A stretch of 64,000 bases of DNA from IMG/VR virus record IMGVR_UViG_2806310546_000001, one strand, 5' to 3'. A program made the position numbers and the translations under genes. Numbering within the stretch: position 1 is the first letter of the stretch; every line of letters starts with the position of its first letter. Below the pieces are notes generated by a model. The model did no database searches. It saw nothing but the letters and a program-made list of their open reading frames with translations, and was not told the origin of the DNA. This DNA is from a virus. Lineage: Duplodnaviria > Caudoviricetes. Shown piece by piece: positions 1 through 60,464 of the stretch.

Positions 1-582
1 TTAGTTTCCCGGAGTAAATGCGCGGTAAGTGCGAGGCTCGTTGCTCCCCACCTGAGGAGCCGCGCAGGCCGCGTACTTCGCGTCCACCCACGCGGCGAAC
101 TCCGGATCCTCGCGGTACCTACGGAGCGTGTCCTCCAGCAACATCACGGTCCGTGGCAGCGGAGGCCAGGGAAGGTTCTTCTCGGCGCGGTACCGAATCC
201 ACTCATCCACCGTGAAGTCGAGCTTGTTCTCATTGCAGGACCTACATGCAGGAGCAAGATTACGGCGCCGGCGAGTTCCTCCCTGGCTGACCGGGACGAT
301 GTGATCGACACAAGTCGCTTCGTCACCGCAGTAAGCGCAATTACCCGACGCTAGGACGTCTCTACGAACTGCAGCGGGGATCCTTCGAGCCTCTCTCTTC
401 GCTCGCACGGCCCTGTCGGCCTGAGCCGCGCGGTAGTCCTTGATGGCCTGGGCTCGTCGCGACGGGCCCAGTTGCCGATCGGACAGGGCTGCGACGACCG
501 ACCCAACGTCCGGATACTCGCCAACCTCAACCAGGTACTTGAACCTCTCGAGCCGCGTAGCGGGGTCACCTTCGAGCAGCAT
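1..582 (-). CDS. HNH endonuclease
   Basis: CAYC...DHIVPVSQGG...NLAPACRSCNENK motif. ATG at 582 overlaps the TGA of the upstream HTH gene (TGATG), so the start is moved from the track's 675. Confidence 0.85.
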   Translation of the reverse strand: MLLEGDPATRLERFKYLVEVGEYPDVGSVVAALSDRQLGPSRRAQAIKDYRAAQADRAVRAKREARRIPAAVRRDVLASGNCAYCGDEATCVDHIVPVSQGGTRRRRNLAPACRSCNENKLDFTVDEWIRYRAEKNLPWPPLPRTVMLLEDTLRRYREDPEFAAWVDAKYAACAAPQVGSNEPRTYRAFTPGN

Positions 583-839
583 CAGGTTTCCCCGTCTCGC
601 AGGTACGGCTGAGCCCAACGGTGCACTGTTGACTGGTCGACCTTCCGAAGCGCCGCGATCCGCGGCCAGGTCCACCCGCGGCGGTACAACTCGGCTGCTG
701 TCCGCCCCTCGATGGCTTTCCGTTCGCTCAACGCCCTGAACGAATCAGCCAGTTCAGCTTCGGTCATGTCGCCGACTTCGATCTCTCCGGTCATGAGCCG
801 CACCAGAGCATGTGTCACCTCGTACTTACGGCCCGTCAC
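582..839 (-). CDS. small helix-turn-helix regulator (Kor-like repressor candidate)
   Basis: C-terminal GWTWPRIAALRKVDQSTVHRW HTH; divergent from the transfer operon. Confidence 0.7.
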   Translation of the reverse strand: MTGRKYEVTHALVRLMTGEIEVGDMTEAELADSFRALSERKAIEGRTAAELYRRGWTWPRIAALRKVDQSTVHRWAQPYLRDGET

Positions 840-863
840 GGGCGGGGATCTTAGGCCATCAAC

Positions 864-919
864 CCGCCTTGCATTTCTGCAAGAGTCAGGCCAGACTAGC
901 CGCCTTGCAGTTCTGCAAG
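864..919. promoter_or_regulatory. twin palindromic operator sites
   Basis: CCGCCTTGCA(T/G)TTCTGCAAG at 864-883 and 900-919; core palindrome CTTGCA-N4-TGCAAG; located between divergent genes. Confidence 0.75.
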
Positions 920-956
920 CAAGCGTCGCCTTGTCAAACCCCGAGGAGCCTCGCCT

Positions 957-1211
957 GTGAGCTCAACACCCGACCTGAGCGTTCTGCCGGGATGCCACGG
1001 TCCAAGCCTTCACTGCGAGGCGTGCGGCAGCCGGGACGGCCTGACCGTTGTGGTCCGCGAAACGAAGTTCGGGCCGGCATGCGCCACCGTCTGCCCTGGC
1101 TGCGCGAAGGCCCGCCCGCACCCGCTGACGGTGTCCGGTGCGCAGACGTTCGCCCTGGATCACGCCCGTCACGTCACACAGGAGAAGGATCGACGGGCGG
1201 GATCGACATGA
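957..1211 (+). CDS. small Cys-rich (zinc finger) protein, first gene of transfer operon
   Basis: CEAC and CPGC pairs; ATGA overlap with next gene. Confidence 0.6.
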   Translation: MSSTPDLSVLPGCHGPSLHCEACGSRDGLTVVVRETKFGPACATVCPGCAKARPHPLTVSGAQTFALDHARHVTQEKDRRAGST

Positions 1212-1972
1212 AAGCCCGGCTCCTCGCGCTGCGCCCGTCCGGCCCGTGGCTGCTTCGTGACGCTCTCCGCGTCGTCCTGGTCGTCCTCCTCGCCGCGGTG
1301 TCTGCCTGGTACCTGACCCGGTGGGGGTTGGCGAACCGGATCCCGGTCGGGTTGGCGTGGACGCTGCCGGTACTGGCTGACGCGTCGGCGCTGCTGGGGA
1401 TCGTGGTGGCGAAGCACCCGCGGGACGAGTCGTGCCGGCGTAAGGCGACCCGGTTCGCGTGGGCATCTGCCGGTTTGTCGGCGGTCGGGAACGGTGCGAT
1501 GCACGCGGTGGATTTCCAGGCCGTCGAGGTGTCCATCTGGACGGTTGTCCTGACCGGCGCCCTGTATCCGCTGTTCCTGGCGTGGGGCTACGACGTGGCC
1601 GGCGGGATGGCCGCGCGGCCGGGCGGGGTGTCGGTACCGCAGGACGTCGAGACGCCAAGGACGGTCGCTGAGCTCGCCAGCGAGCGCGTGACCGAACCCG
1701 CGACTCCGTGGCAAGAGCAGCCGCCTCCCGCGCCCCCCGATCCTGCTCCTGCGGCGGAGGACGCGACCCCGCCGCAGGAGCAGTTCCACGAGTGGACCGT
1801 AGAGGCAGCGACCGACTGGGCGTTGGGCGAGCTCCGCGCCGGCAATGGTCCGGTCGGCTGGAAGAAGGTCCGGACGCAGACGGGGCTGACCGAGGGGCCG
1901 GCCGGGCGTGCAGCTCGAGCGGCGAAGGCGACACACGAGCGTGAGGCCCGTCCGAGGTTGGTGGGCACATGA
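1208..1972 (+). CDS. DUF2637 / Spd-like membrane spread protein
   Basis: Four hydrophobic segments with LAWTLPVLAD and SAVGNGAMHA motifs, Pro-rich linker, HTH-like C-terminus; ATG at 1208. Confidence 0.65.
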   Translation: MKARLLALRPSGPWLLRDALRVVLVVLLAAVSAWYLTRWGLANRIPVGLAWTLPVLADASALLGIVVAKHPRDESCRRKATRFAWASAGLSAVGNGAMHAVDFQAVEVSIWTVVLTGALYPLFLAWGYDVAGGMAARPGGVSVPQDVETPRTVAELASERVTEPATPWQEQPPPAPPDPAPAAEDATPPQEQFHEWTVEAATDWALGELRAGNGPVGWKKVRTQTGLTEGPAGRAARAAKATHEREARPRLVGT

Positions 1973-2184
1973 TTACCGGCTACGTCCTCGGGTGGATGTC
2001 GGCACTTCCGTGCATGTTCGGGCTGACGTGGTGGCTCGACCGCCGTGACGAGAGGCGACGACGGACAACGCTGCGGATCGACCAAACGCCGGTCCCGCTT
2101 CCTGGCGCCTACGAGCCGTGGTCTGAGCGGAGCCTGCCCGGGGTGCGGACCCACACCGTCGTCGACGGGGAGGGGCGGTCGTGA
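1969..2184 (+). CDS. small membrane protein
   Basis: One TM segment; 4-bp overlaps on both sides. Confidence 0.55.
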   Translation: MITGYVLGWMSALPCMFGLTWWLDRRDERRRRTTLRIDQTPVPLPGAYEPWSERSLPGVRTHTVVDGEGRS

Positions 2185-2447
2185 AGGCCGGGCTAATCGC
2201 GGGCCTGTTCGTATGGGCCGCGCTGGCGGAACACGGCGTGGTTGGCGGCATCGCAGGACTCCTCGTTGGCCTGGCCGCCTGGTGGCTAGAAGCGAACATG
2301 TGGCCCGATATCGAGGGCTGCTGGAACCCGTTTTGCCGGAAGGGGAAGCTCAGCTACTCCCCGTTCGTGCCGAAGGCGTACCGCCGGTGCGGGCGCTGCG
2401 GGGGGTCTGGGCGTAGACGGCGGGTGCTGGCGGGTGGCAAGTCGTGA
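2181..2447 (+). CDS. small membrane protein with CxxCxGxG zinc finger
   Basis: Two TM segments then CGRCGGSG; coupled by GTGA overlaps. Confidence 0.6.
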   Translation: MKAGLIAGLFVWAALAEHGVVGGIAGLLVGLAAWWLEANMWPDIEGCWNPFCRKGKLSYSPFVPKAYRRCGRCGGSGRRRRVLAGGKS

Positions 2448-3040
2448 CCGCGCATCCGAGCCGGGACTGGTCCGACAAGGGCGGGTCGTTCACCCAGGGC
2501 CGGACCTGGGACAACCCAGGCGGACCCATGGTCCAGCCGTCCACCGCTGACATTGAGCGTCGGGCACGGGAGGTTCTGGCCCGGTTGGATCCGAGCGCTG
2601 CGGACGTGATGCGGGTTCAGGGCCGGCACGTGTCGGACCGTCTCGCTTCCGATGCGCTGGGGAAACGGGACCACGTGGAGTCGTCCCAGGCGATCTCTGC
2701 TGCCATGCCCCGACGGCCTCACTGGCAGCCGCGCCAGGTCGTCCCGCTCAGCGAGCAGCGGCGGCAGGAGATCGCGACCGCTGGTAGACCGCGAGACGTC
2801 GACTACCCGGGGCGGGGCAGGGAGCTCGCGGATGCGGCGAACGAATCGTGGCGCCACTACTTCTCCGAGCGCTACGGCCTCGCCTTGGACGACGACCTCC
2901 ACCGCGACGCGTGGCTCGAGCAGCAGGCGGTGGAGCCGCGGGAGGACCACTACGCCGGCTCACCGGACTTCGACGACTTCGACATGCCAGGGCAGCGCGC
3001 CGCTGCCGACGAACACGTACAGGAGCAGGTGCAGACATGA
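2444..3040 (+). CDS. hypothetical protein (transfer operon)
   Basis: 4-bp overlaps with both neighbours. Confidence 0.55.
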   Translation: MTAHPSRDWSDKGGSFTQGRTWDNPGGPMVQPSTADIERRAREVLARLDPSAADVMRVQGRHVSDRLASDALGKRDHVESSQAISAAMPRRPHWQPRQVVPLSEQRRQEIATAGRPRDVDYPGRGRELADAANESWRHYFSERYGLALDDDLHRDAWLEQQAVEPREDHYAGSPDFDDFDMPGQRAAADEHVQEQVQT

Positions 3041-3568
3041 CCGAGACCGCGAACAGCAAGGCGATGTGGGATCTCTATCTCATGGCCCGCGACAGCGATG
3101 ACTGGTTCTCGAGCGGCACAGACGCCGCCCACCAGGAGTGGCTGGACTCGATGGGCCACGTCGACGCCGACGTGGACGTGGACGTCCAGTGACCGCGCCG
3201 TGGCACGACGTCGAGGTGGTGTGGCCGGACGGGTCCAAGAGTGAGGACGGGATCCGCGGTTCGGACCGCGACCACGCGCTCGAGAACGCGGAGTGGAACT
3301 GGATCAGCGGCAACCCGTACGGCCGGGCGGAGCGGATCGAGTACGTCGGCCCGTCGCCGACACCGGTGGACTGGTGGGCCGCCCACTCGGTGTCCGCCGA
3401 TGACGAGGTGGATGTGCTGTGAGCGACGAGACGTGGTGGGAGCGGTTCTTCGGCCCCACAGAGCCCGGCGAGTGGACGGGGCCGTGCTGCGTGGAGGTCG
3501 CCCCTGACTCGCCGCCGATCCCGTTCCGGTGGTTCGACCAAGCCGACGGGGATGTGGATACGCGATGA
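3037..3568 (+). CDS. three small acidic, Trp-rich coupled ORFs (3037-3192, 3189-3422, 3419-3568)
   Basis: Unbroken chain of ATGA/GTGA start-stop overlaps read from the sequence. Confidence 0.5.
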
Positions 3569-5289
3569 GGACGACTCACTACCTGGTCATGACGATCGTG
3601 GTCGGCGTGACGACCGCGGTGGTGGCGTGGTCTCAGTACCGGAGCTGGCTCACGGCGCTGGTCGGTCTCGCTGTGGCGGGGCTGGCGGCGGCGGTGTTGC
3701 GTCGCTGGCTGCGCAGGCAGCCGCACCCGCGGTGGGATCAGTTCCGGGACTTCCTCCGGCCCCAGGCCCATTCCGCGCAGACGGTGCTGGACCGGTCGGA
3801 GACGACGCTGCGGCAGCACGGCTTGGCCTCGGATGCCGAGATCCGGGAGCACGGCGGGGAGGCCGCTGTTCTTGCGCTCGCCCCCATCGTCCGTCCCTCC
3901 CTCGCCCACCGATCGGACGTGAAGGTGGAGGAGGTGGCGCTCGAGCTGTGCACCGTGGGGAAACGGAAGGTGTGGTCGTCCATCGAGCAGGTGGTGCTGT
4001 ACTTCGCCGGACCTCGCCGCGGGAAAACTGGATATCTGAACTGCCGGGTCGTGGACTACCCGGGGAGTGTCGTCACCACCTCCACCCGGATCGACGTGTT
4101 CACCGCCACCCACCGTGCCCGTGCTGCTCGAGGACGGGTGCAGGTGTTCAACGCCGGCGGCTTCCCCGGGGTGGACGAGGTAGCGGTCACCTTCAACCCG
4201 CTGACGGGGTGCGAGGAAGCGGAGACCGCGACGCAGCGAGCGGAGGACATGATCCCAGAGTCCACCGGGGAGGAGGAGCGGTGGCAGTCCCTCGCCCGCG
4301 GCGCCCTGTCCTCCCTGATGCATGCGGCGGCTTTGGACGGCCGGGACATGGACACGGTGCAGCGGTGGGTGGCGGCGCCCGGTGAGCACCAGGACGAGGT
4401 GATCCGGATCCTCCGCCGCTCCACCTCGGGTGGGGTGATGGAGGATGCCCGGCAGTTCTTTGAGTGCAACGACAAGACCCGGAGCTCCATCACGACGTCG
4501 GTGATGCCGGCGCTGCGGTGGTTGCAGTCCAAGACGGCGCGTCTCGCGGCGGGGCTGGACGGAGCACAGGCGCGTCCTCTCGACTCGGCTTCTCTCCTGA
4601 CGTCGGTCTCCACCTTGTACGTGCTGGGCCGGCGGGCTGGGCACACCTACCCGCTTATGTCGGCGCTCACCGGCTACGTCGCCCGCGCTGCGCGGGAGCA
4701 GGCGGCGGGGATGCCGTCCGGTCGCTGCGACCCCCCGCTGGGTCTGCTGCTCGACGAGGCCGGGGACCTCCGCCCACCGCTGCCGGACTGGACGCGGGAC
4801 ATGGGCGGGTCCGGCATCACGATCGCCGCCTGCTTCCAGTCGTACGCGCAGATGGTCGGGGCGTGGGGGAAGGAAGGCGCCGCGATCATCCTCAACAACG
4901 CCGGGCCGATCATGCTGGGCGGCGGGACGAAAGACCCCGACGACCTCGCCGTGTGGCGGGACCTCGCCGGCGACCGCGATGACCGCACCACCACCACGGA
5001 CGCGCAGGGGAAGGTGACGGCTGCCGCGATGCGGTCGGTGCCGGTCCTCCCCGCCTCCCAGCTCGCCTCCCAGGCACGAATGGAAGTGGTGTTGTTCCAC
5101 GGCGAGATGCGTCCCGCGCTGGGGCGGACGACGCCGCTGTGGGAGCGGGACCCTTCGGTCGCCTCTCCCCCTCCCCCCTCCGTGGAGGAGGTGGAGTCCC
5201 CCGTGGTGGAGGTGCCGAGGGTGTGGCGTCGTTCCTCCCCTCCTCGTTCTCGCCGTGTTCCGGTGGAGGAGGTGGTGGCGGATGTCTGA
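3565..5289 (+). CDS. type IV coupling protein (VirD4/TraD/TraG-like ATPase)
   Basis: N-terminal TM pair, Walker A AGPRRGKT, VVTTSTRID, FNPL, Walker B LLLDEAG, ACFQSYAQ...WG...ILNN; ATG at 3565. Confidence 0.88.
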   Translation: MRTTHYLVMTIVVGVTTAVVAWSQYRSWLTALVGLAVAGLAAAVLRRWLRRQPHPRWDQFRDFLRPQAHSAQTVLDRSETTLRQHGLASDAEIREHGGEAAVLALAPIVRPSLAHRSDVKVEEVALELCTVGKRKVWSSIEQVVLYFAGPRRGKTGYLNCRVVDYPGSVVTTSTRIDVFTATHRARAARGRVQVFNAGGFPGVDEVAVTFNPLTGCEEAETATQRAEDMIPESTGEEERWQSLARGALSSLMHAAALDGRDMDTVQRWVAAPGEHQDEVIRILRRSTSGGVMEDARQFFECNDKTRSSITTSVMPALRWLQSKTARLAAGLDGAQARPLDSASLLTSVSTLYVLGRRAGHTYPLMSALTGYVARAAREQAAGMPSGRCDPPLGLLLDEAGDLRPPLPDWTRDMGGSGITIAACFQSYAQMVGAWGKEGAAIILNNAGPIMLGGGTKDPDDLAVWRDLAGDRDDRTTTTDAQGKVTAAAMRSVPVLPASQLASQARMEVVLFHGEMRPALGRTTPLWERDPSVASPPPPSVEEVESPVVEVPRVWRRSSPPRSRRVPVEEVVADV

Positions 5290-5836
5290 GTCGCCAGCCG
5301 AGGTGGAGGGGCCCGATCTTCACGCGGAGGTGGAGCGCCTCGCCGGGATGGTGGTGGCGCTCGCCCGCAAGGTGGGGGAGCTCGAGTCCCGGGACGACCC
5401 GTCCGCGGTGCGGTCGTGGCTGTACGTGGACGACGAGGAGACGGCCGGGTTCATGCTGGCCGACCTGTGCGCGTGGGTCGAGAAAGTGTGGTTCCAGTAC
5501 GACGACGCGCGCCGGCTGCAGCCGTGCTGGCTGTACCACCCGGGCATCGTCGAAGAGCTGTGGGTGCTGATGAACGTCCACCGGGGCTGTTTCCGGAAGG
5601 GCGGCTCGTACCAGCAGATGGAGACGTGGCACGCGACCTGGCGGCCGGCCGCTGTTGAGCGGATCCGGAAGTACGCGTCGTCCTGCGAGATCACCGAGCA
5701 CCAGCCTGGCGGCGACCTTGACCCGGCTAGGCACCCGCCCGTCCCTGGCCTGTCTGACGTTGACGCAGTTGCTGGCCGCTGGCCCGAGTCCGACGTGCCG
5801 CCGAGCCCTCCTACCCCTGTATCTCACCCTGTGTGA
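5282..5836 (+). CDS. conjugation-associated protein (DUF4913-like)
   Basis: L.AWV...PCWLYHPGIVEEL...WH pattern, between coupling protein and relaxase. Confidence 0.55.
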   Translation: MSESPAEVEGPDLHAEVERLAGMVVALARKVGELESRDDPSAVRSWLYVDDEETAGFMLADLCAWVEKVWFQYDDARRLQPCWLYHPGIVEELWVLMNVHRGCFRKGGSYQQMETWHATWRPAAVERIRKYASSCEITEHQPGGDLDPARHPPVPGLSDVDAVAGRWPESDVPPSPPTPVSHPV

Positions 5837-5981
5837 CTGCTGACTACCTGTAGTGCACTGCAAGTACGACCGATACACACCTTCGCATCCCGATCCCTAG
5901 GTACTGCGTGCCGCTGTGCGGCAGCGGCCGGGAGGCACACACCGTGACAGCTATTGAGACCACTCAGATCGGATCACGCAG
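5837..5981. promoter_or_regulatory. candidate origin of transfer (oriT)
   Basis: Intergenic, directly upstream of relaxase; inverted repeat GCCGCTG-N5-CAGCGGC (5910-5928) followed by GGCACACACC; nic site not determined. Confidence 0.5.
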
Positions 5982-12078: not shown

Positions 12079-12224
12079 GCCGCTGCCCTTTCCTGTGCGA
12101 GAGCTGCGTTGACGATTCTCCGCCAGAGACGACCAGATGGGGACGATGCATCGCTGATCGGGCCAGCGGTCGCGTTATGGCGCTTTCCCGGCCGGGATGG
12201 AGGGCGGGCGGTGGGCGGCCGTCA

Positions 12225-12668: not shown

Positions 12669-12859
12669 GATGTCTCCTCGGTAGGGGTCGCACGACGCCA
12701 GCCTTGTCCCGGCCGCCGCAGGTTCTCCACCTCGGACCGGAGGTAGCCCCGTCGTTCGGTGATTCCGTAGCGACGGAGTGTGGATCGGACGGACTCGGGC
12801 TGGATGCCGAGATGTTCGGCGACCTCTTCCCGGGTCATGACTGGCTCTTTGTCTGGCAC
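12665..12859 (-). CDS. small HTH DNA-binding protein (excisionase/MerR-like)
   Basis: MTREEVAEHLGIQPESVRSTLRR. Confidence 0.65.
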   Translation of the reverse strand: MPDKEPVMTREEVAEHLGIQPESVRSTLRRYGITERRGYLRSEVENLRRPGQGWRRATPTEETS

Positions 12860-20791: not shown

Positions 20792-20792
20792 G

Positions 20793-49974: not shown

Positions 49975-49975
49975 G

Positions 49976-52777: not shown

Positions 52778-53868
52778 CTAATCGGTGATATAGCCGAACT
52801 TCCGGAGCAGCTTGACCGCCGTGTCCCGGTCGCCGTCAGCGATCTCAAGCACGCTCTCCGGCATCAGCCGCGGCACCTTCGCCCGGCTGTACCGGGTCGG
52901 GCCCTTCTCGGAGCCGTACTGGGCGATCAAGCGTTTGCCGGCGATACCGCCCCGCGTGGTGCCCTCGTCGGTGACGTACAGCTGGCGGCCGTACACGTCG
53001 ACCCGTTCGAGTTTCCCTCGGGACTTACCGCCGCGGAGCATCTGCTGTTCCGCGTTCGTGAGTCGCCCCGGTCGGGACAGGCCCTTGGCGCCGCGGCGGG
53101 CGTTCACGGCCTGGTTCATGTCGGCGCCCAGCCGGATCGCCTCAGCGGTGGCCTTGCCGAAGTACTTGTTCTGGTCCGACTCCGTCAAAGACTCGAAGTA
53201 CGCCTGCGGGTCCGTGACGAGGTCGTCGGCCGCGTCTTCGGCGGCCGGGATGTGGATGCAGTCGCAACTTGGGGTTGTCTCGGGTGCCGCTGGAAACCAG
53301 ACGACACCCGATACCTCCGTCCCGCGAGGATCGCGCAACGACCGCACGACGGAGGGACTAGCATCCGGACGTAGCCTGTGACCTGCGGTTCGACCGCCAT
53401 CTCGATGTCGGTTGCGGCCCGGCCGGTGTCGGAAATCTGTGTGTTGACGATCGTCGCCAGTGACTCCTCACCGGACGCGATCGCCTCGTCGGCTGGCTTA
53501 CCTCGCGCAATGTCCGCCAACGTCGCGAAGATCGGGGCGTACATCAGGTCGTCGAGATCCCGCCCGTCCGAGGCGATCCCAGTCAGCGCGTCCGGGAGCA
53601 GGTCCCCCAGAGGCGACGGGTCGACGCCCTGCGCGCGGAGAACCCTGTCGACGTACTCGCCGGCCTGGTCGATCGCCGCCAACTGCAGGGTGCCGACGCC
53701 AGCCATGAGCCGATCTGAAGCGCCGATCCGATCCCAAGACCCGCGGAGGTCGGCGGGGTCGAGCTCGCGCCACACCTTGCGGGCTTCCTGCTCCCCGCGG
53801 CGAGACAACGTCGCCAAGAGCGCGTAGAACGCTCGGGCGGTCTCCGCGACTGCTTCTGCGGTCGCCAC
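52778..53868 (-). pseudogene. MuF-like minor head / capsid maturation protein split by frameshift
   Basis: Upstream frame ends ...CGRCAILAG...GFQRHPR; downstream frame continues CDCIHIP; 11 extra nt at 53267-53277. Confidence 0.7.
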
Positions 53869-53871: not shown

Positions 53872-55440
53872 CTAAGCCGCCGTCGTCGGGCGGGTCTGGG
53901 TCGCCTGCGGCGGAAGCGTCACCGAGTCCGTAGCTGCGGGAGGCTCCGGTGTCGCCCGGAACCTATCGGCGGCCTGCAGGATCGGATCCGTGGCGGCCTG
54001 CGCCTGCGCGTCCTCGAGCTTCTTACGCTGCTCGTCCTCGCGGAGCTTCAACCACCGCTCCACCTTCTGCGGTGTCGCGCCCGGCAGCAGCTCGTAGCCG
54101 GCCTGCACCGGGAACTCCGCTCCCGACACCAGCTTGACGATGCCGTCGACGAGGACCGCAAACTGCTTCGTCTCCGTCTCCGCCCAAATGACCTCGGACG
54201 CGAGATCCTCGAACTGCTCGCCGCGGGCCCGGTTCGCCAAGCGCATGACCTGCTCCACGGACTCGCCGTTCCAGCGCTTCAGGTCCGAGATCAGGGACTG
54301 CAACGTCGACTCGGCCGCAGTGAGGGTGTCGCTGGACAGGTTCGACATCCGGTTCAGCAAGTACTGCGGCGGCACCTGCCCCGTAGCGAACAAGTCCGTG
54401 AGGAACTCTGTGAGCACCGAGATGTAGTTGCTGAGGTTGCTCTCGGGCATGTCGAACACCTTGGTGTCCGCGCCCGGGAACACCAGCGCTCGGTCTACCC
54501 CGACTCGCCCTGGGGAAGTGACGATCGGCAACGGCTGCCCGTTCGCGTCCAGCAACACCGTCCCGTCCTCGGCGCGCTGCGGCACAATCGCACCGTGCTC
54601 ATCCCGTAGGACTGGGTCGTAGCCGGTGAACACTCTCTGCCGGTAGGCGGAGAACTGCATCGCCAACAGCGTTTGGAAGCGGATCGTGTTGATCGCGTCC
54701 TGCTGCGGCATCAGCTGCTCGAGCGCCGACGTCGGTTCCCCGTCCGCGTCCTGACGGTTGTCGAACGCGACGAACGGGTTGTCCTCCAACGGGTTCGCCC
54801 CGGCCTTCACCAGCGACCACGCGCCCGGGGTGATCGAACCGGACATGCCGCCACGCTCGAACCGGAACCACGACTCGTCGTCGTAGACCACGCCCACCTG
54901 CCGCGACGTCTGACCGTCCACGCCGGCCGGCAGGATCAGCCGCGACGGGGGCCGGTCGTCGACCGTGTACGTCTTGCAAGACCACAACGTCGTCCACGGG
55001 TCGTCCGGGTCCGGCTCGAGATGTACCCGCTTGCCGTTCTCCGGCCGGATCAGCGGCGACTTCCGCGCCTTCTGGTTCGGCCACACGCTCATCAAGCCGC
55101 GCCCGTGCAGGAACGCGTCCGTGTACGGGATCCGCTGCCGGCTGTCGAGCTTGTTCGGCTGCCACACCTCGTTCCAGGTGGCAACATCAGCCTCGTCGTC
55201 CCTGCCAGTGCGGAAACCCTCCGCGCGGAGCCGCTGGATGGGGGTGTCCATCGCCAAGGCGAGCCAGTTAGCGACCGCCTGCTCCCGCAGCTTCAAGTAC
55301 TCCGCGTTCACGCCCTCGGGCGCGTACGGCAGGTCCTGGTTGCCCTTGTAGTAGGCGGTGCGGCGCTCGTAGCCGGGCTGCTTCGCGCTGATCCGGGCAA
55401 GCCCGATGTCGAGCCGGTCCCGCGCCTGGGCCTCGTCCAC
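53872..55440 (-). CDS. portal protein (SPP1 gp6-like)
   Basis: YYKGNQ, VANW, QRL..EGFR, WQPNKLD, QDAIN, FSAYRQR; GTG at 55440. Confidence 0.92.
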   Translation of the reverse strand: MDEAQARDRLDIGLARISAKQPGYERRTAYYKGNQDLPYAPEGVNAEYLKLREQAVANWLALAMDTPIQRLRAEGFRTGRDDEADVATWNEVWQPNKLDSRQRIPYTDAFLHGRGLMSVWPNQKARKSPLIRPENGKRVHLEPDPDDPWTTLWSCKTYTVDDRPPSRLILPAGVDGQTSRQVGVVYDDESWFRFERGGMSGSITPGAWSLVKAGANPLEDNPFVAFDNRQDADGEPTSALEQLMPQQDAINTIRFQTLLAMQFSAYRQRVFTGYDPVLRDEHGAIVPQRAEDGTVLLDANGQPLPIVTSPGRVGVDRALVFPGADTKVFDMPESNLSNYISVLTEFLTDLFATGQVPPQYLLNRMSNLSSDTLTAAESTLQSLISDLKRWNGESVEQVMRLANRARGEQFEDLASEVIWAETETKQFAVLVDGIVKLVSGAEFPVQAGYELLPGATPQKVERWLKLREDEQRKKLEDAQAQAATDPILQAADRFRATPEPPAATDSVTLPPQATQTRPTTAA

Positions 55441-55459
55441 AAGACCCCCAGCCAATGTC

Positions 55460-56083
55460 CTAGTTGAAGCCGTACATGCGAGTGGAGATCTTTGAGGCGA
55501 CCACAGGCTTTCTCCCCCAGCCGGCGGCGCGAGCATCAGCTGCGGCCTCGTGGCAGATCACGGAAGTGACCGCGCAGTCGATCTTCTGCATCTGGCTTGG
55601 TTTCCCGAGGATGTAGCGGTCCGCAGACTTGGCGATCTTGCGCGCGTTACCCATATGCGTCGCGGTCACCGGGCACCCATCGTGGGAAAGCTCGCCCGTC
55701 TTCAAGTCAGCCACGAACCGAGTCAGAGCCGGGTACATGCGGCCGATCTGGTTCGTCGGCCACGGCAAGAACCGCTCCTCGCCCCACATCCGGGCCCACT
55801 GCTCGATCTCCGTCTCCCACGACGTCTCATCGTGGAAGCCAGGGTCGCAGTACGCCCGCTCGAGCGTGAACGTGTCGACGATCTCCGTCCAGGCCACCAG
55901 CACCTGATCGCGCGGGATGCGCCCGCCCCACTCGGCGGGATCCCAGATCGTCGGGAGACGGTCAGGGCCGTAACGCGGGGTGAACTGGAAACCGGCCAGA
56001 GTCTCGAGCCGGATGACGCTGAAGTCCGAGTTCTCGCTGCCGTCGAACCCAGCGCACACCGGGGTGCTCGCATCGACAGTCAC
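55460..56083 (-). CDS. terminase large subunit, nuclease domain (separate ORF)
   Basis: GFDGS...D, YCDP, HDG...H..NA, KIDCAV RNase H-like motifs. Confidence 0.85.
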   Translation of the reverse strand: MTVDASTPVCAGFDGSENSDFSVIRLETLAGFQFTPRYGPDRLPTIWDPAEWGGRIPRDQVLVAWTEIVDTFTLERAYCDPGFHDETSWETEIEQWARMWGEERFLPWPTNQIGRMYPALTRFVADLKTGELSHDGCPVTATHMGNARKIAKSADRYILGKPSQMQKIDCAVTSVICHEAAADARAAGWGRKPVVASKISTRMYGFN

Positions 56084-58128
56084 GCCGGGACCAGCTCGCG
56101 CGACCCCGCTTCAGCCGAGTCCCACAAGCCGTCAGGAAGCCAGGCTCCAGAGCCCTGCACGATACGGTTCCCGTAAAACCGCTCAGCCTGCGCCGGATCC
56201 GACTCCATGAGCTCCGCCGCCTCGGCCTCGATCGCGTCCAGGTCCACCCACCACGAACCTTGGTAGACGTAGCGGTGGATCTGCCGGCGGTCGGCCTTGT
56301 TCTTGTACGACAGGTGCGCCGGCGGCTTCCGGTAGAAGCGGAAGATGTCCCGCGACGGCGACTCGAACGTCTTCTGCGCCGTCGAGTTCTCCGCCGGGTT
56401 CCAGCAGTTCGTCGTCTCCAGGGCGCGGCCACCCATACCAGCCAGGCCTCGCCGCTGCGTCTGGGCGACGTAGTGAAGCTTGTTGCGGTCGTTGTAGAGC
56501 TGCGTCTCGTCCTGCACCGCGTACGAGATCGGGTTACCCAGCCGGGACATCGCCGACGAAGTCACCGTTTCGACCTTGCCCTCGTTCGGGAGCCGGATGA
56601 AGTTCTCGCGGATCTTCAACAGCTCACCCAGACGACCGTTGCGGATCATCGACTGCAGCGGGCGGTACGTGTTGGCGGTCTGCTCGTCGCTGTAGGCCGT
56701 CAACTGGATCAGAGGAGTCGGCCACGGCATGCCCTTCGGCTCACCCGGCTCGTAATCCCAACCCCAACCGCAGTCGCAGCCGAACTCGGCGCAGTCATAC
56801 GCCTCACCCGACTTGGCCCACCCCGCGAACAACGCCGGGCCGGCAGCTTCGAGCGCGATACCGCTCGCTGCCCAAGGCCCCTTACCGCTGTTGCCGGTCG
56901 GGATCATCTCTTTGCCAGCGAGAAACGTGTGCGAGCTTGAGTCGACGGTGATGCACTGTGTCGGGACGGCAGGCATCGGATCAATCGACACGATTCGTCG
57001 ATGCTCGTGCTGCGCGTGACTACGTCCCGGCGGCTTAAGCCGGGACTGCTTACGCGAGAGCCGAAACACCGGCATGTCCGACCGCGCTGCGAAACCGATG
57101 CGCCACTTCGGGCCGGTCACTCGGCCGTCCAGCTTAGCTTCGCCCTCATAGCAGACGGGACGAATCCCGAGCGACCTGATCAGCTCTAGAGCGCCGTCAC
57201 GTAACGCCGGAAGCGTCGTCGTGAACTCGCACCTGCCACGCTCATCGCAGTACCCGTCGGTGTCCATGAGCCCTTGCAGCAACGACCAGCGCTGCTTCTC
57301 CGAGGCTCGCAAGTAGCTCGACGGGATGTGCTTGTTGCCGAGAAGGCCCGCTTGACGCAGATCGCCGTACAGCCCGATCGTCTGACGTCGCTTCTCGACC
57401 CTCGTCCGGCGAACCTCGTACCCAGCTAGCTCGACCTCATCGAAGACACCGTCGTCGATGCCAGTGATCCGGCCATCACCGCTGTGGCCATCCCCCAGCC
57501 ATGCCCCAAGTACGTACGGGTCAATCGGGAGGTCCGCGTTAGAAAGCTGAAGCGGCGACGCATTCCGAACTCGGAACCGTCGCGCGCCGTGCGAGTCGAC
57601 CAAGCCGGCGTCGAGCATCTGCTGAGTCGAGACCCGTTCGGTTACATACGTGCCTGACGGGGTCCGCCGGTCCACGACCCAACTGTGATCGCCGCAAGCG
57701 ATCAACTCTGCGCCGTCGGAGAAGAGGACCCGGAACGTCTGCACATCCCAAACGGGCGACTTCGAGACGACGCGCGTGGGGTCACCATCGCGATCGAACA
57801 CGGCGTCGCCGACGGCGAGGTCGCCCATGGTCGTCCACCCCGTAGGGGTAGCGATGAGCGTATCGAGCGCCAACGCTTTCTGGGGCGCCACGATCTGAGA
57901 GCGGCGGTAGAAGAACGCGGGCGCCAGCACCGGGTTCTCTGGCACCCAGACGGCGTCCTCACGTACCCGGTAGTGGTTGTAGGTGCACCACGCCTGCCAG
58001 TCCGCCATGACGTACGGCTCGCCCTTGTGGAAACCGTCCGGGACGACACAGTGATGCTCGATCCAGTGCTCCGCCAACGGCCCCAGTGTCGGGAAGTCGA
58101 CGACGTACTCGTCAGCCTGCGTCGTCAC
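56080..58128 (-). CDS. terL: terminase large subunit, ATPase domain, intein-containing
   Basis: Walker A APQK|SGKG split by the intein; Walker B VQDE; ETTN coupling motif. Confidence 0.92.
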   Translation of the reverse strand: MTTQADEYVVDFPTLGPLAEHWIEHHCVVPDGFHKGEPYVMADWQAWCTYNHYRVREDAVWVPENPVLAPAFFYRRSQIVAPQKALALDTLIATPTGWTTMGDLAVGDAVFDRDGDPTRVVSKSPVWDVQTFRVLFSDGAELIACGDHSWVVDRRTPSGTYVTERVSTQQMLDAGLVDSHGARRFRVRNASPLQLSNADLPIDPYVLGAWLGDGHSGDGRITGIDDGVFDEVELAGYEVRRTRVEKRRQTIGLYGDLRQAGLLGNKHIPSSYLRASEKQRWSLLQGLMDTDGYCDERGRCEFTTTLPALRDGALELIRSLGIRPVCYEGEAKLDGRVTGPKWRIGFAARSDMPVFRLSRKQSRLKPPGRSHAQHEHRRIVSIDPMPAVPTQCITVDSSSHTFLAGKEMIPTGNSGKGPWAASGIALEAAGPALFAGWAKSGEAYDCAEFGCDCGWGWDYEPGEPKGMPWPTPLIQLTAYSDEQTANTYRPLQSMIRNGRLGELLKIRENFIRLPNEGKVETVTSSAMSRLGNPISYAVQDETQLYNDRNKLHYVAQTQRRGLAGMGGRALETTNCWNPAENSTAQKTFESPSRDIFRFYRKPPAHLSYKNKADRRQIHRYVYQGSWWVDLDAIEAEAAELMESDPAQAERFYGNRIVQGSGAWLPDGLWDSAEAGSRELVPA
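56890..57876 (-). mobile_element. 329-aa intein with LAGLIDADG endonuclease, class 3 signature
   Basis: Begins ALALDT, ends IPTGN before Ser; DHSW, TQCITVD and PTGN give the Trp-Cys-Thr triad; LGAWLGDG and LQGLMDTDG endonuclease motifs. Confidence 0.9.
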
Positions 58129-58576: not shown

Positions 58577-58590
58577 AGATTCACCTCCGT

Positions 58591-59625
58591 CTAGCCGATC
58601 AAGCTTAGTTGTTCACCGCCGCCCCGATCGGACTTGAGGCAGTTGCAACTGAAACACGCTGTTCGCAAGTTGGCCATGGTATGACTACCGCCGCGGGCCA
58701 GCGGGATGACGTGATCCAGTGTCGGCGCACGGGGATGCGGAACCGCCTTGTCGATTGCTACTTTTCTTCGACATAGATGGCAGCGGTATTGGTCTCTCTT
58801 GTAGATCCTGCGCCGCCAGATCGGTTCGCACTCGCTGCGATGTTTGCGTAACCGACGGCGCCCGTTGCCCGCGCGCCTACTACACCGCCGTGAGCAGTAC
58901 CACGTATCCGCTCCCTGGATCGTCCGGTCCCACAGGAATCGATCCCCGCACTCACGGCATTCACTGTCAACGAACCGAACCCGGTGCCGCCGACGTGACT
59001 CATGGGTGACTGGCACAGGGGTGCTGCGGATTGGGTGTCCATCCGGAACAGCACTTGACGGCCACTGACCCGTGAATATGAGTGTTCGGCACGGTCCTGA
59101 GCGGCAGGTAACCCGAGCGCCTTCGCGAAGACTCTGCCGTCGTCGTTCAACTAGTTGGCCGCAGGCCTCGCACTGCCGCTTGACCCGCAAGCCCGGGTCG
59201 ACGTACCCCCGCGTTTTGGCATTCTCGTGCCAGAACCGCTTGCCGTGATCCTCGCAGCAGCACAGTTGCGTATGACGGCGCGGGCGGAACAGGAGGCTAC
59301 ATGTACCTAGTGCACATGGTCGGTCTGGCAACGGTTCGGCGAACCGCACCCCGGCGTGGACTTGCGAGCAGAACAGGCTGCAAAACTTAGTGTTACCACG
59401 ACGGCCAGCGATGCTAGATCCGCATTGCACGCATAAACGCTGGGCGTCGCAGTTATCGCAATACAGCGGTGGCGTTCCGGCCGGTGCTGGCACGAGGTGG
59501 CCGCACCGAGCCTGGCGAGCCTGCTTTGGCCACGATTGCCCCGGAGAGCAGGACTCGCAAGCCATCCGCTGTCGGCCAGGATGGCTCGGCACTTCGTGAC
59601 CGCAACGTGCTACGCGCGTTTTCAA
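58591..59625 (-). CDS. free-standing HNH homing endonuclease with multiple zinc fingers
   Basis: RDQYRCHLC...TLDHVIPLARGGSHTMANLRTACFSCN; many CxxC pairs. Confidence 0.88.
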   Translation of the reverse strand: MKTRVARCGHEVPSHPGRQRMACESCSPGQSWPKQARQARCGHLVPAPAGTPPLYCDNCDAQRLCVQCGSSIAGRRGNTKFCSLFCSQVHAGVRFAEPLPDRPCALGTCSLLFRPRRHTQLCCCEDHGKRFWHENAKTRGYVDPGLRVKRQCEACGQLVERRRQSLREGARVTCRSGPCRTLIFTGQWPSSAVPDGHPIRSTPVPVTHESRRRHRVRFVDSECRECGDRFLWDRTIQGADTWYCSRRCSRRAGNGRRRLRKHRSECEPIWRRRIYKRDQYRCHLCRRKVAIDKAVPHPRAPTLDHVIPLARGGSHTMANLRTACFSCNCLKSDRGGGEQLSLIG

Positions 59626-59749
59626 TTTGTCACTGCTCCCATGAGATGCGACAGGCCCGGAGCATGGGAACTCCGGGCCTGTCTAGCCCTCCGGGATCAG
59701 CGGAGGGGTGTGTCTACCTGCGGGCCGGAAGTGGCGGCAGGTGGAAGAT

Positions 59750-59900
59750 CGCGAAGGGTGAACCCTGCGCGCCTAGGGCGGCTCTCCCCGCCGGTGACTG
59801 GCAGGTCAGGCGCCCCTTGGGTCCCCCGCCAGGGTACCCTAAGAACCGCTGGTCAGACCCTTGATCGTTGATCACATGCTGCGTTTCCGCAGGTCAGAAG
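59750..59900. other. candidate cos (packaging) region
   Basis: Non-coding, between packaging HNH and TerS side; minus-strand ACCGGCGGGGAG; three GC(A/T)GGTCAG repeats. Confidence 0.45.
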
Positions 59901-60080
59901 CGTGCCGGTTGCGGTCACTCGCAGTGACGGGCTGGCGGGCAAGAGCGGAGGCCGCCGGCCGATTCGGAGGTTGGCCTCAAGCCCGCTCGGCGAGCTCAAC
60001 CACTACGCAGCGGCCGGCACGTACGTGCGACAAAGGCCATCCATCGACGCGAAGCCATCGGGTTCGGCTCACGCTTCGGG

Positions 60081-60464
60081 TCACGCGTACTGCTCGCGGT
60101 CGTTCCATCCGCCTCGCTGAGCCGGCTCGGCTGCTGTCGCTTTGCCGTGGTGCACATGGCACAAGCCTCGACCCGCATCAGGGTCATTAGCATCAAGGCC
60201 TTGAGCAACGAGGTCACGTCTACTCAATGGCCAATGGTCGGCCACTGTGCTCGGCTCGATGCAACCCTCAGGCCATTGGCATGTCGGATGCTTGGCCAAG
60301 ACGCCTGGCCTGAACCGTGTGCGGTGCTCGTGGTCGTAGCCTCGCTGGGCTGGCGTGCCTCGGGCCTGGTCCGCTGTGCGCCTGCAGGCTGGGCACTTAC
60401 CGCCGAGAGAATGGAGATCGGGGCAACCTGGAGTGGAGCACACACGGATGCGTGGTCTAGGCAT
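60081..60464 (-). CDS. small packaging-associated HNH protein (HK97 gp74-like)
   Basis: CSTPGC, RGYD..H, CQWPEGC, ADH, GLCHVHH; position upstream of terminase. Confidence 0.75.
   Translation of the reverse strand: MPRPRIRVCSTPGCPDLHSLGGKCPACRRTADQARGTPAQRGYDHEHRTRFRPGVLAKHPTCQWPEGCIEPSTVADHWPLSRRDLVAQGLDANDPDAGRGLCHVHHGKATAAEPAQRGGWNDREQYA

Follow-up and report, generated by a model that had tools for sequence, protein, structure and literature searches.

A 64,000-nucleotide stretch of viral DNA (hereafter, the window) contains a siphophage virion, packaging and lysis gene set that adjoins genes for a relaxase and a type IV coupling protein (T4CP), with nothing separating the two sets. With proteins of this kind, a nicking enzyme and an ATPase, plasmids send DNA into a mating channel. 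This arrangement raises the question of whether the transfer genes belong to the phage and, if so, what they do for it. An earlier note, made from the sequence alone, had described the locus as a candidate mobilisable or conjugative phage-plasmid, able to spread both as a virion and by cell contact.

Integration site and phage genes

The window corresponds to C1:4626400-4690399 of a 6.50-Mb contig, a Pseudonocardia chromosome, and forms the left 58% of a low-GC island of ~110 kb located at a tRNA-Asn gene; relative to the window, the GC trough extends from ~-6 to +110 kb. The att sites form a direct repeat of 54 bp (92.6% identical) whose core is the 3' half of the tRNA, and attR and the integrase lie 46 kb to the right of the window (Table 1). 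A search of the whole island with PF00589 revealed no second tyrosine integrase besides the copy at +108.6 kb, no serine recombinase was found in the island, and the best internal att copy scored 24, compared with shuffled maxima of 23-28. As the earlier note had stated, no integrase or att-like duplication lies between the two gene sets. It had also considered that att sites and an integrase just outside the window might separate an independent mobilisable element from a prophage; these are indeed present, but they enclose the transfer genes and the phage together. We consider that the window is probably the left part of a single integrated temperate siphophage genome of ~110 kb in the Pseudonocardia chromosome. 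In the excised circle, the order would be terminase, head, tail, lysis and tail fibres, a variable region of ~7 kb, the transfer cassette, attP, integrase and repressor, and early genes.

Table 1. Features of the island, in window coordinates
Feature	Position	Strand	Remarks
attL	-153..-102 (C1:4626246-4626297)		outside window; element start ~100 bp left of window base 1
Left end of integrated element	1..581	.
85-aa HTH regulator	582..839	-	HTH_23 at E 2e-5; divergent from transfer operon
Small overlapping ORF chain 5' of T4CP	957..3568	+	GC3 gene calls
T4CP (VirD4/TraG type), membrane-anchored	3529..5289	+	PF12696, PF02534, PF10412 above cut-offs
Conserved 193-aa protein, T4CP-relaxase interval	5255..5836	+	homologue in every related locus, phage-linked or not
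oriT/nic-site candidate	5876..5896	+	non-coding CACACC-N3-GCATC-CCGATCC, 21 nt
MOBF (TrwC-type) relaxase fused to RecD-like helicase	5982..10133	+	1383 aa, intact; TrwC + AAA_30
Conserved 144-aa protein	10130..10564	-	convergent with relaxase
Variable region, cassette to phage late genes	10796..17064	.	small membrane proteins, 318-aa protein, initiator-like gene
Initiator-like gene	13192-14352	-	40% identical to weak HTH_36 protein at 72995-73837 (early region)
DUF4190/DUF4352 membrane protein	15751-17064	+
Pectate-lyase/beta-helix tailspike	18536-20842	-	768 aa; PF12708 + PF13229
258-aa protein adjoining tailspike	within 18536..21569	-
Endolysin	22630..23559	-	Peptidase_M15_4
Tail fibre	31092-34607	-	1171 aa; PHROG tail families; 55% identical to L023 fibre
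Three minor tail proteins	34505-37725	-	PHROG tail families
Tape measure protein	37725..45143	-	2472 aa; phrog_4197 at 5e-54 + other tape-measure families
Tail tube protein	46463..47140	-	PF25681
Major capsid protein (GP7 type)	50793..51731	-	PF20911; phrog_212 at 2e-82
MuF-like minor head protein ('capsid maturation protease' homologue)	52778..53868	-	frameshift near 53272-53278
Portal protein	53872..55536	-	PF05133; phrog_104 at 5e-86
Large terminase, two coupled ORFs	55460..58128	-	682 aa + 207 aa; phrog_19179 at 2e-167; phrog_21277 at 8e-85
HNH endonuclease 5' of terminase genes	58591..59625	-	PF01844
Early region start	60937..64000	-	48-kb region, continues to +108 kb outside window
DNA-binding protein	62268-63428		phrog_1568 at 4e-26
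Replication-initiator homologue	89982-90851		outside window; phrog_3926, E 2e-22
Xre-type repressor candidate	107629-108114	+	outside window; HTH_31 + HTH_3 matches
Tyrosine integrase	108576-109724	+	outside window; PF00589 at 4e-21
attR in tRNA-Asn(GTT)	109791-109880	-	outside window; tRNA called by ARAGORN

The integrated state bears directly on the phage-plasmid proposal. A closed extrachromosomal, self-conjugative replicon would account for an element that unites relaxase, T4CP and virion set; however, this element is inserted in the 6.5-Mb chromosome between attL and attR at tRNA-Asn and has a tyrosine integrase, its relatives carry integrases as well, no partition or mating-pore genes appeared in the proteins scanned, and whole-genome searches placed no VirB4 in the island. 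This reading is hardly credible, and for the Pseudonocardia genome the assembly refutes it.

The virion set, which had been called near-complete, does run from the terminase to the tail and lysis genes. Its major capsid protein is 61% identical to that of Streptomyces phage Rowa, with which the island also shares the HNH-TerS-TerL order, the placement of the HNH gene being that of a cos-type packaging module; the first TerL ORF carries an intein-like LAGLIDADG insert (~residues 220-410; Hom_end, LAGLIDADG_3). In contrast, the MuF-like head gene is frameshifted: residues 31-195 and 194-337 are encoded in different frames, while Rowa gp04 and the homologue in L017 are single ORFs. For this reason, this copy of the prophage may no longer make infectious particles. 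The gene at 13192-14352, previously taken as the replication initiator, is a doubtful one that resembles a weak HTH_36 protein, and a better candidate (phrog_3926) lies outside the window.

The transfer cassette and its relatives

In the cassette, an HTH regulator and small membrane proteins accompany the T4CP, a 193-aa protein, the oriT-like motif and the MOBF relaxase-helicase. Profile matches agreed with the earlier observation that an intact MOBF relaxase and a VirD4-like ATPase are contiguous with the phage genes. The relaxase matched TrwC (5e-48), AAA_30 (1e-53) and NCBIfam MobF (162 bits, cut-off 100); its His triad aligns with that of TrwC, an N-terminal YY is present, and Y12, Y24, Y25, H213, H223, H225, GxGK 549-552 and DE 613-614 are invariant in 20 homologues of the phage clade. 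As expected under functional constraint, dN/dS was below 1 for both relaxase (0.17-0.40) and T4CP (0.45-0.54). The latter has a Walker A (GPRRGKT, residue 165), a Walker B (LLLDE, residue 406) and two N-terminal TM segments, and is 56-58% identical to the copies on phage contigs. The oriT-like motif, a conserved block in the alignment of upstream regions, lies 86 nt 5' of the relaxase start and is unique within the 6.6-Mb genome; of 21 further locus pieces that were scanned allowing up to 2 substitutions, 13 have it 5' of the relaxase, among them non-phage loci left out when the motif was defined.

Twin palindromes (868-883 and 904-919, inverted repeat I5) occupy the promoter region common to the HTH regulator and the transfer operon, and homologues of the regulator have the same position in L022 and G330. 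The ORF chain that follows has homologues in L021, L022 and L023 but no Pfam match; it includes a conserved 198-aa protein (2444-3040) and a 254-aa protein (1208-1972) with three predicted TM segments, which fills the slot of the DUF2637 proteins of the relatives and shows weak similarity to a DUF2637 protein (E 0.005 to 1e-5). The 193-aa protein gave no family match in Pfam, PHROGs or NCBIfam and is a candidate relaxosome accessory protein. Homologues of the 144-aa protein lie directly 3' of the relaxase in L022, L023, G330, G333, G048 and others. Beyond it, ORF 15497-15988 has a 59% homologue in L022, and beta-helix or pectate-lyase equivalents come after the relaxase in L022 and L030.

The closest relatives of the relaxase (48-72% identity) were found on viral contigs of 41-72 kb from metagenomes and IMG/VR, up to 100% complete according to CheckV (89-100% for three of the IMG/VR contigs), completeness and ends of the metagenomic contigs being judged from CheckV and gene order and not from observed termini. 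In these relatives, the cassette sits between the lysis/tail-fibre genes and the integrase. Five contigs of 20-68 kb (L021, L022, L023, L027 and L028; relaxase identity 60-65%) have the order repressor, integrase, cassette, lysis, tail, together with tape measure, capsid, tail tube and minor tail proteins, and the more distant relaxases of L030 and L032 (51-52%) also have a phage context. The island integrase is 59% and 55% identical to those of L021 and L022, respectively. These two contigs and L028 carry the tRNA-Asn 3' half, without a whole tRNA, between integrase and cassette; by sequence, this attP position is the excised or virion configuration predicted from attL and attR of the island. 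The linkage of TerL and major capsid protein with a MOBF relaxase, which the earlier note had suggested seeking in other genomes, was found, for example, in G330 (55,092 bp) and G333 (72,180 bp), which, read whole, each have TerL, portal and capsid genes and the cassette; in G333 the cassette is central, and TerS, a serine integrase and Prim-Pol are also present. With its 110 kb, the island exceeds the relatives read whole by 40-55 kb. Its closest capsid relatives (59-61% identity) are phages of 41-43 kb, and the same capsid family also builds phages of 108-350 kb. A search of 136 other Pseudonocardia species genomes found nothing related, which leaves no within-genus comparison.

As cassette and phage genes are also joined in at least 12 more diverged phage contigs, their linkage is neither an assembly chimera, a possibility that had been raised at the outset, nor a chance neighbourhood. 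The phage genomes that carry it have three different capsid types and tyrosine or serine integrases. In the relaxase tree, all 13 phage-context relaxases fell in one clade (35 of 126 rows, SH-like support 98), and the four non-phage rows fell outside it. Since the same cassette occupies the same slot by the integration module in a monophyletic set of diverged phages, these comparisons indicate that it is a conserved part of the phage genome itself, in agreement with the initial view of one mobile unit in which relaxase, T4CP and oriT candidate are part of a siphophage genome.

Such a junction could also arise by accretion, if an integrase-less mobilisable element and an unrelated prophage shared the tRNA-Asn site, as in the streptococcal phage-ICE tandems. 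Tandem insertion does occur at this site, where an integrase C-terminal fragment and low-GC DNA are found left of attL, and an integrase lies 6-9 kb upstream of each of three other relaxase/T4CP elements of the genome. However, the island has a single integrase and no third att copy above the chance score and, chiefly, the diverged phage contigs repeat the same junctions, attP lying between integrase and cassette. These results largely refute accretion, which we judge very improbable.

Possible roles of the cassette

The island contains no mating-pair-formation genes, VirB4 included; consequently, the term conjugative is not supported and, unless its cassette suffices by itself, the island can be no more than mobilisable. 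The cassettes of the relatives contain neither VirB4 nor any other mating-pore gene, and PF03135 had no match in the whole genome. The genome encodes a single VirB4-like AAA_10 ATPase, at a locus that adjoins the dnaK operon 1.7 Mb from the island and also codes for an NlpC/P60 hydrolase. With four further related relaxase/T4CP sets in the genome, this locus would have five to serve, including that of the island.

On balance, we favour a prophage that is excised, nicked, handed to the T4CP and exported through a mating channel provided by another element or the host. The integrase would excise the circle and the relaxase would nick it at the conserved motif 5' of its own gene, remaining covalently bound to the 5' end while its helicase domain unwinds the strand; the strand would then pass to the membrane-anchored T4CP, which would feed it into the channel. 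The phage lineage may, in this way, spread via cell contact besides virus particles, a dual route that we infer from sequence comparisons. If so, the prophage would be both a virus and an integrative mobilisable element, reaching cells to which its virions cannot adsorb and without a capsid size limit.

It is less likely, although not negligibly so, that the cassette handles the phage's own DNA inside the cell, the relaxase-helicase being the rolling-circle initiator and unwinding enzyme of lytic replication, and the T4CP and membrane proteins moving phage DNA between hyphal compartments and not between separate cells. HUH nickases begin rolling-circle replication in some phages (phiX174 gpA, P2 gpA), and Pseudonocardia is a filamentous genus. 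The lack of a linked helper mating pore and the DUF2637 membrane proteins beside the cassette in L023 and L027 are in line with such a role. However, replication is served by other genes of the island and its relatives (replication-initiator homologue, ERF or RecT, RuvC, Prim-Pol), the cassette lies outside the early lytic operon, in the orientation of the integrase and repressor and with its own divergent regulator, and the same cassette and cis motif are also present in non-phage integrative elements. That a membrane-anchored T4CP and multi-TM proteins have been retained is more in keeping with DNA export than with replication inside the cell.

We regard as improbable that the cassette serves as a weapon or shield, with the relaxase and T4CP interfering with, hijacking or excluding co-resident conjugative elements, or nicking incoming DNA, to the benefit of the lysogen and without moving the phage. 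In temperate actinophages, as known from mycobacteriophage genome organisation, the slot between lysis genes and attP-int holds genes expressed in lysogeny, and the four other relaxase/T4CP sets of the genome are potential targets. Nevertheless, a conserved cis oriT-like site by the relaxase gene is needed for self-mobilisation and not for interference, and family searches in PHROGs, Pfam and NCBIfam named no defence function for the cassette proteins.

Comparison with known systems

We found no published description of a relaxase-bearing phage lineage like the Pseudonocardia island. In paired phage and ICE elements, phage and conjugation genes are also excised and moved as one unit; however, these are two whole elements side by side, of 40-89 kb and with their own integrase each, in which VirB4, VirD4 and a MOBP relaxase come from the ICE module, whereas the island has neither an internal att nor a T4SS, its integrase is the only one, and its cassette of 10 kb lies inside the phage genome. 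The streptococcal mobilisable prophages (SMphages; Huang et al. 2023 ISME J, cited in PMC12282955 and PMC13693407) and the 'conjugative prophage' Phi1207.3 (PMC4260502) are, like the island, integrated prophages, and the passages cited report their conjugation-like movement between cells. In contrast to the island, these passages describe transfer as assisted by ICE machinery, in hosts that are Firmicutes and not Actinomycetota; the Phi1207.3 paper names no relaxase.

Phage-plasmids such as P1, N15 and SSU5 (PMC7969092, PMC12282955) also combine phage and plasmid-type genes in one element, but their replication is extrachromosomal and no conjugative example is known (PMC12282955), whereas the island integrates by means of a tyrosine integrase. 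The actinobacterial GenBank record 'Mycobacterium phage Adler' (KF981876, 95.7 kb, UNVERIFIED_ORG) likewise lists a 'putative relaxase' along with a 'VirD4 components-like protein'; however, identity is only 25%, over half of the relaxase, the genes for the two proteins lie on opposite strands with 4 kb between them, and the phage nature of the record is unverified. TrwC of R388 and TraI of F/pKM101 (PDB 1OMH, 2CDM) share with the island protein the relaxase domain, His triad, N-terminal tyrosines and fusion to a RecD-like helicase, but they belong to conjugative plasmids while the island relaxase is phage-encoded, and only in the catalytic core does its sequence resemble that of TrwC (E 9e-10).

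Integrative mobilisable elements with a relaxase (iMOB IMEs, PMC11389934), represented here by the paralogous relaxase/T4CP elements of the genome, L029 and L033, have a site-specific integrase and att sites, a MOBF relaxase and T4CP, the 193-aa partner and the same upstream cis motif. They also have no mating-pair-formation genes, and their cassette is homologous at 42-53% identity. Unlike the island, these elements have no virion, packaging or lysis genes and measure 10-30 kb; in the island the cassette is part of a phage genome of 110 kb (55-72 kb in relatives), and the phage-borne relaxases form a clade of their own.

Extent and integration state of the island

The window corresponds to G000:C1:4626400-4690399 of the host genome, within a contig of 6,501,404 bp with 72.9% G+C; a second contig of 110.6 kb completes the assembly. 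Because the window sits in the 6.5-Mb contig, the island is chromosomal and not a closed plasmid. In window coordinates, a trough in G+C (~65-70%) extends from about -6 kb to +110 kb. As in a prophage, an integrase and flanking att repeats are found at a defined target, in this case a 54-bp repeat at tRNA-Asn. The integrase is the single PF00589 match between the att repeats, and no serine recombinase was detected within the island. A third copy of the att sequence was not found either, given that the best local alignment of the att/tRNA sequence with the island interior scored 24, and shuffled queries scored 23-28. From the att boundaries and the lone integrase, we defined a unit of ~110 kb, of which the window is the left 58%. 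The earlier note had proposed a candidate phage-plasmid. A phage-plasmid is a replicon that is extrachromosomal in lysogeny; this label is wrong, since the window lies inside a chromosomal contig and belongs to an att-flanked unit with an integrase.

Directly to the left of attL there is a C-terminal integrase fragment with 87% DNA identity to the 3' end of the island integrase, and ~6 kb of low-GC DNA (59-68%) precede attL (window -6000..-150; ~14000-19850 in L001, a piece around the island). Both are what is left, in decayed form, of an element that had earlier inserted in tandem at this tRNA-Asn. The Logan contigs that cover the attL region contained no joint for an excised circle and none for an empty site; their loose ends at the att core are the tRNA gene itself, and the comparison is uninformative.

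Features of the island (window coordinates)
Feature	Coordinates	Strand	Remarks
attL repeat	-153..-102		~100 bp left of the window; 3' half of tRNA-Asn plus 17 nt; 54 bp, 92.6% identity
HTH regulator, 85 aa	582-839	divergent	twin palindromes at 868-883 and 904-919
254-aa protein	1208-1972	plus	3 TM; in a chain of small ORFs
T4CP	3529-5289	plus	PF12696, PF02534, PF10412
193-aa protein	between T4CP and relaxase	plus	no family match
Candidate oriT motif, 21 nt	5876-5896		upstream of relaxase
MOBF relaxase-helicase, 1383 aa	5982-10133	plus	TrwC, AAA_30, NCBIfam MobF above cut-off
Phage genes	18.5 to 59.6 kb	minus	tailspike to HNH endonuclease
Tail and lysis genes		minus	beta-helix tailspike, M15 endolysin, fibre, three minor tail proteins
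Tail and head genes		minus	tape measure (2472 aa), tail tube, GP7-type capsid protein, scaffold-like protein, portal
Tailspike, C-terminal 454 aa	18540-20061	minus	second copy in the chromosome
Large terminase	55460-58128	minus	two coupled ORFs, intein-like insert; HNH endonuclease also in this region
~300-bp repeat	24540-24700, 67536-67805, 78288-78698, 86631-87239, 102705-103030		75-78% identity
51-bp direct repeat	77547-77597, 83572-83622		in L002, a piece of the island; 92% identity
HNH_3/NUMOD4 gene	81684-82334		early region
382-aa protein	100893-102041		adjoins ERF; L003 (piece of the island) 16893-18041
Early genes	right of window, up to integrase		RNA ligase, RuvC, DUF5131, ANT/Bro antirepressor, ERF, replication-initiator homologue, Xre-type HTH repressor
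Tyrosine integrase, 382 aa	108,576-109,724		adjoins tRNA-Asn; PF00589, E 4e-21
tRNA-Asn(GTT)	109,808..109,880	minus	ARAGORN

Virion genes, transfer cassette and oriT-like motif

Genes were called by third-position G+C; the raw ORF list was swamped by spurious frames. Terminase, portal, major capsid, tail and lysis genes are present, as in a prophage, together with an immunity and early region that includes the repressor, the antirepressor and recombination genes. The gene content of the window confirms the observation in the earlier note that a virion, packaging and lysis set occurs together with a MOBF relaxase and a T4CP. The MuF-like head gene, located after the portal gene, is a single ORF in the Streptomyces phage Rowa and in an IMG/VR relative, and here it is in two frames, split near 53,272-53,278, which agrees with a separate remark by the author of the note on an 11-nt insertion; the other structural ORFs are open. 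Given this frameshift, the present copy may be defective as a virus, in which case conjugation would be its sole exit.

The island measures 110 kb, versus 55-72 kb for the relatives that were read whole. The late region, with a tape measure of 2472 aa, an intein, two additional HNH genes and 7 kb of variable sequence, is longer than theirs; the early region of 48 kb holds ~95 genes, among them plus-strand paralogues that form a family and whose 5' regions are repeated. Since no duplicated core functions were found, the island reads as one large genome. An objection based on the capsid size was dropped because the capsid family spans phages with genomes of 40-350 kb, so that size alone is no bar to packaging; temperate actinobacterial siphophages of ~110 kb are known, namely the cluster J mycobacteriophages.

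The two ORFs of the large terminase (682 and 207 aa) are translationally coupled, with a 4-bp overlap, and each has its own PHROG family; the first contains a ~190-aa intein-like insert with similarity to LAGLIDADG/Hom_end. In plus-strand genes that interrupt the minus-strand early operon, the ~300-bp repeat takes in the upstream region and the sequence for the N-terminal ~120 aa. One of these genes is similar to the N-terminal part of PHROGs labelled 'replication initiation protein', and together they may represent a family of lysogeny-expressed regulators. The C-terminal part of the tailspike has a 98% identical copy at G000:C1:5098188-5099711, 470 kb away and with no other island gene beside it, which points to a recent exchange of the receptor-binding domain with another element. 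The 51-bp repeats flank 6 kb of the early region that include the RuvC-like gene, and may be the boundaries of a small insertion. The 382-aa protein encoded next to ERF matches phrog_4285 ('transposase', E 1e-101) and has no Pfam match.

In the cassette, the T4CP shows the T4SS-DNA_transf and TraG-D_C domains, the Walker A (GPRRGKT) and Walker B (LLLDE) motifs and an N-terminal membrane anchor of two TM helices, as expected for a VirD4/TraG protein; a phmmer search against PDB sequences gave no match for it. The relaxase scored 162 bits with MobF (NF041492, cut-off 100), its His triad aligns to the TrwC structures and the N-terminal tyrosines are present. With these catalytic motifs, its own integrase and att, and no mating-pair-formation system (no VirB4 or AAA_10 match), the island resembles an integrative mobilisable element with a relaxase (iMOB), for whose oriT in cis the 21-nt motif is a candidate. 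Neither Pfam nor PHROG nor NCBIfam has a family for the ORF at 11411-12367, for the small ORFs of the cassette or for its proteins of 193 and 144 aa, and an assignment of the 254-aa protein to DUF2637 is a weak hint only. The gene for this membrane protein (window 980-1963; 2980-3963 in L036, a piece that includes this part of the window) is, by itself, matched at 93% identity by a 3.3-kb contig from a 2022 run of another organism, and the flanks on either side of the match are unlike the window.

The alignment of the regions upstream of the relaxases revealed a common block, CACACC-N3-4-GCATC-(0-2)-CGATCC. The corresponding motif of the island is unique in the 6.6-Mb genome and occurs exactly in the loci L022, L023, L027, L028, L030 and L038. 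A scan of 21 further locus pieces that allowed up to two substitutions gave a single copy, located upstream of the relaxase, in each of 13, and these include non-phage loci that were not used to define it. The nic region of an oriT would be expected to look like this. Its complement contains TGCG-N-GGTGTG, which we take to resemble the nic regions of F and R388 and regard as a lead. In L022, a homing-endonuclease gene (HNH_3/NUMOD4, 9231-10007) lies between the motif and the start of the relaxase gene, and homologues with 39-43% identity are present in the island early region and in L023.

The cassette in related phages

The host genome contains five TrwC relaxase/T4CP sets; those outside the island are located at C1 4546375-4562128, 6042463-6057817 and 6306898-6324371, and at C2 100476-103904. 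The three other chromosomal copies have the T4CP and the 193-aa partner (42-45% identity) and a tyrosine integrase 6-9 kb upstream. Among 200 genomes of the family, the relaxase homologues reached at most 53% identity, and the six of these loci that were compared have only the trio of T4CP, 193-aa protein and relaxase in common with the island. Two unpublished genomes, G062 and G087, enter this tally alone, and no conclusion depends on them. No close portal homologue, and none near a relaxase, was found in these 200 genomes, and none was detected in 136 genomes of other Pseudonocardia species. On the same-genome, family and genus evidence alone, it would be a serious rival that an integrase-less mobilisable element had accreted beside a prophage, since in its own genome the cassette resembles a common non-phage module. 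Against this, the linkage of the cassette with phage genes recurs in phage contigs. Closer relaxases, with 60-72% identity, were recovered from a search of 5.8 billion proteins; every one of them is encoded on a contig from a metagenome or an SRA assembly.

Loci and viral contigs with related relaxases
Locus	Relaxase identity	Length	Content
L021	65%	51 kb	early genes, Xre repressor, tyrosine integrase, small ORFs, T4CP, small ORF, relaxase; followed on the minus strand by amidase, collagen-like and sortase genes
L022	62%	67 kb	order as L021, plus beta-helix and LtfC genes; TMP_3 tape measure on the contig
L023	61%	69 kb	order as L021; HK97-type capsid, head completion and tail tube proteins, 1837-aa tape measure, minor tail proteins
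L028	61%	20 kb	repressor, tyrosine integrase, cassette
L027	60%	57 kb	immunity and cassette order as L021, but serine integrase
L030	52%	41 kb	relaxase, then sortase and pectate-lyase tail genes
L032	51%	52 kb	cassette between PG-binding lysin and integrase, repressor, RecT region
L029 (out-of-clade control)			ParB, DUF2637, SSB, methylase
L033 (out-of-clade control)			WhiB, DUF2637, cargo genes
G330 (viral contig)		55,092 bp	CheckV 100% complete; T4CP; read whole
G333 (viral contig)		72,180 bp	CheckV 93%; T4CP; read whole
G332 (viral contig)		69,184 bp	CheckV 89%; T4CP

Beyond the trio, the island is also homologous to these relatives in its integrase (59% and 55%) and repressor, in the HTH regulator, several small ORFs of the cassette and the 144-aa gene that follows the relaxase, and in tail fibre and lysis genes; the two out-of-clade controls have no phage genes. 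The sortase genes lie among tail-fibre genes (L021 20707-21291, L030 10277-10894), which is unusual for phages. In L021, L022 and L028, the 3' half of tRNA-Asn immediately follows the integrase and precedes the cassette, and ARAGORN found no whole tRNA at this half-site, so these contigs are in the attP configuration. Recombination of such an attP with a host tRNA-Asn would place integrase and cassette at opposite ends of the resulting island, exactly as is seen here. An attP between integrase and cassette implies that the cassette is part of a molecule that existed free of the chromosome. In addition, the island has no internal att site and no second integrase, the marks of a tandem accretion. 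In view of this evidence, we regard accretion as extremely improbable. L023, for its part, carries a whole tRNA-Arg(TCT) directly after the integrase (3338-3418) in place of the tRNA-Asn half-site of the other contigs; this is probably an attP with a complete tRNA copy.

A single relaxase query gave no match in IMG/VR, and an alignment of 20 clade members used as the query retrieved seven viral contigs. G333 begins 15 nt before a small ORF of 133 aa that directly precedes the TerL homologue, which is the position of TerS; TerL, portal, P22-type capsid protein, tape measure, fibres and lysis genes are followed by the cassette on the opposite strand (relaxase at 35,576-39,799, T4CP at 41,357-43,282), and then by a serine integrase, early genes and Prim-Pol. 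The content of G330 is the same, permuted differently, and no integrase was identified in it. The cassette thus accompanies three capsid types (GP7 in the island, HK97-type and P22-type) and either tyrosine or serine integrases, and, except in G330, it is always located between the late genes and the integration/immunity module.

In a FastTree phylogeny of 126 relaxases, with SH-like values as the only support, the 13 entries with phage context all fell into one clade of 35 entries (support 98). All four entries with non-phage context were outside this clade, so that one change of state suffices. Y12, Y24, Y25, H213, H223, H225, the helicase GxGK and DE are invariant in 20 clade members. The dN/dS values (Nei-Gojobori) were 0.17 for the closest pair of relaxases, 0.35-0.40 for distant pairs and 0.45-0.54 for the T4CP, with dS probably underestimated at this G+C content. 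We conclude that the cassette of relaxase, T4CP and oriT-like motif is part of the phage genome itself and is kept under selection, and that its carriers are a clade of temperate actinophages whose heads and integrases differ. The core idea of the earlier note, a phage with its own relaxase-based mobilisation module, is right as far as function can be read from sequence, and is better founded than its author could know because the module defines a conserved lineage.

Possible function of the cassette

On our analysis, the cassette somewhat probably serves the conjugative mobilisation of the excised phage genome. MOBF systems act by nicking at oriT, covalent attachment, unwinding and delivery to the channel by the T4CP, and the phage genome would follow the same steps. 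Mobilisation is favoured because multi-TM proteins, a T4CP with a membrane anchor and a cis site by the relaxase have all been retained in the lineage, and because the module in the non-phage relatives is an IME-type transfer module. We consider it unlikely that the cassette serves phage replication or spread within the mycelium, and very improbable that it interferes with other conjugative elements.

The weak point of the mobilisation reading is the channel. The complete T4SS of an ICE, including a VirB4-type ATPase, is absent from the island: neither VirB4 nor AAA_10 was found within it, no VirB4 family member is present in the cassettes of the relatives, and PF03135 has no match genome-wide. 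The term conjugative, applied to this phage as a candidate label in the earlier note, is incorrect. The lone VirB4-like ATPase of the genome (AAA_10, 1144 aa, the single PF12846 match) lies 1.7 Mb from the island, at C1:6.390-6.397 Mb next to dnaK-grpE-dnaJ; together with the NlpC/P60 hydrolase encoded there, it is the sole candidate helper locus. It seems quite doubtful that the multi-TM protein, T4CP, 193-aa protein, relaxase and oriT would make up a self-sufficient minimal conjugation system of mycelial actinomycetes, without a VirB4-type machine; if they did, these would be truly conjugative viruses, spreading as virions and as ssDNA through their own T4CP pore.

If the cassette works as in plasmids, mobilisation would offer these viruses an additional way to spread that depends neither on receptor specificity nor on lysis and is not limited by capsid size; phages and mobilisable elements would be less sharply separated, and models of host range and gene flow in soil actinomycetes would change. 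Among the relaxases examined, that of the island is the sole clade member from a named isolate genome, so the idea lends itself to direct bench tests with this strain.

The relaxase had a single actinobacterial match in 50,697 phage records, the 'UNVERIFIED_ORG' record Adler (25% identity); megablast gave no match for the phage arm among phages or for the tra arm among plasmids, and full-text literature searches for phage- or prophage-encoded relaxases found nothing closer. According to PMC12282955 (2025), neither phage-plasmids nor integrated prophages include any known conjugative example, and only the ICE-assisted transfer of streptococcal prophages is cited there. Phage-ICE tandems are accretions of two complete elements, in which the ICE supplies the relaxase and the T4SS (PMC13651849). 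The Phi1207.3 paper does not mention a relaxase.
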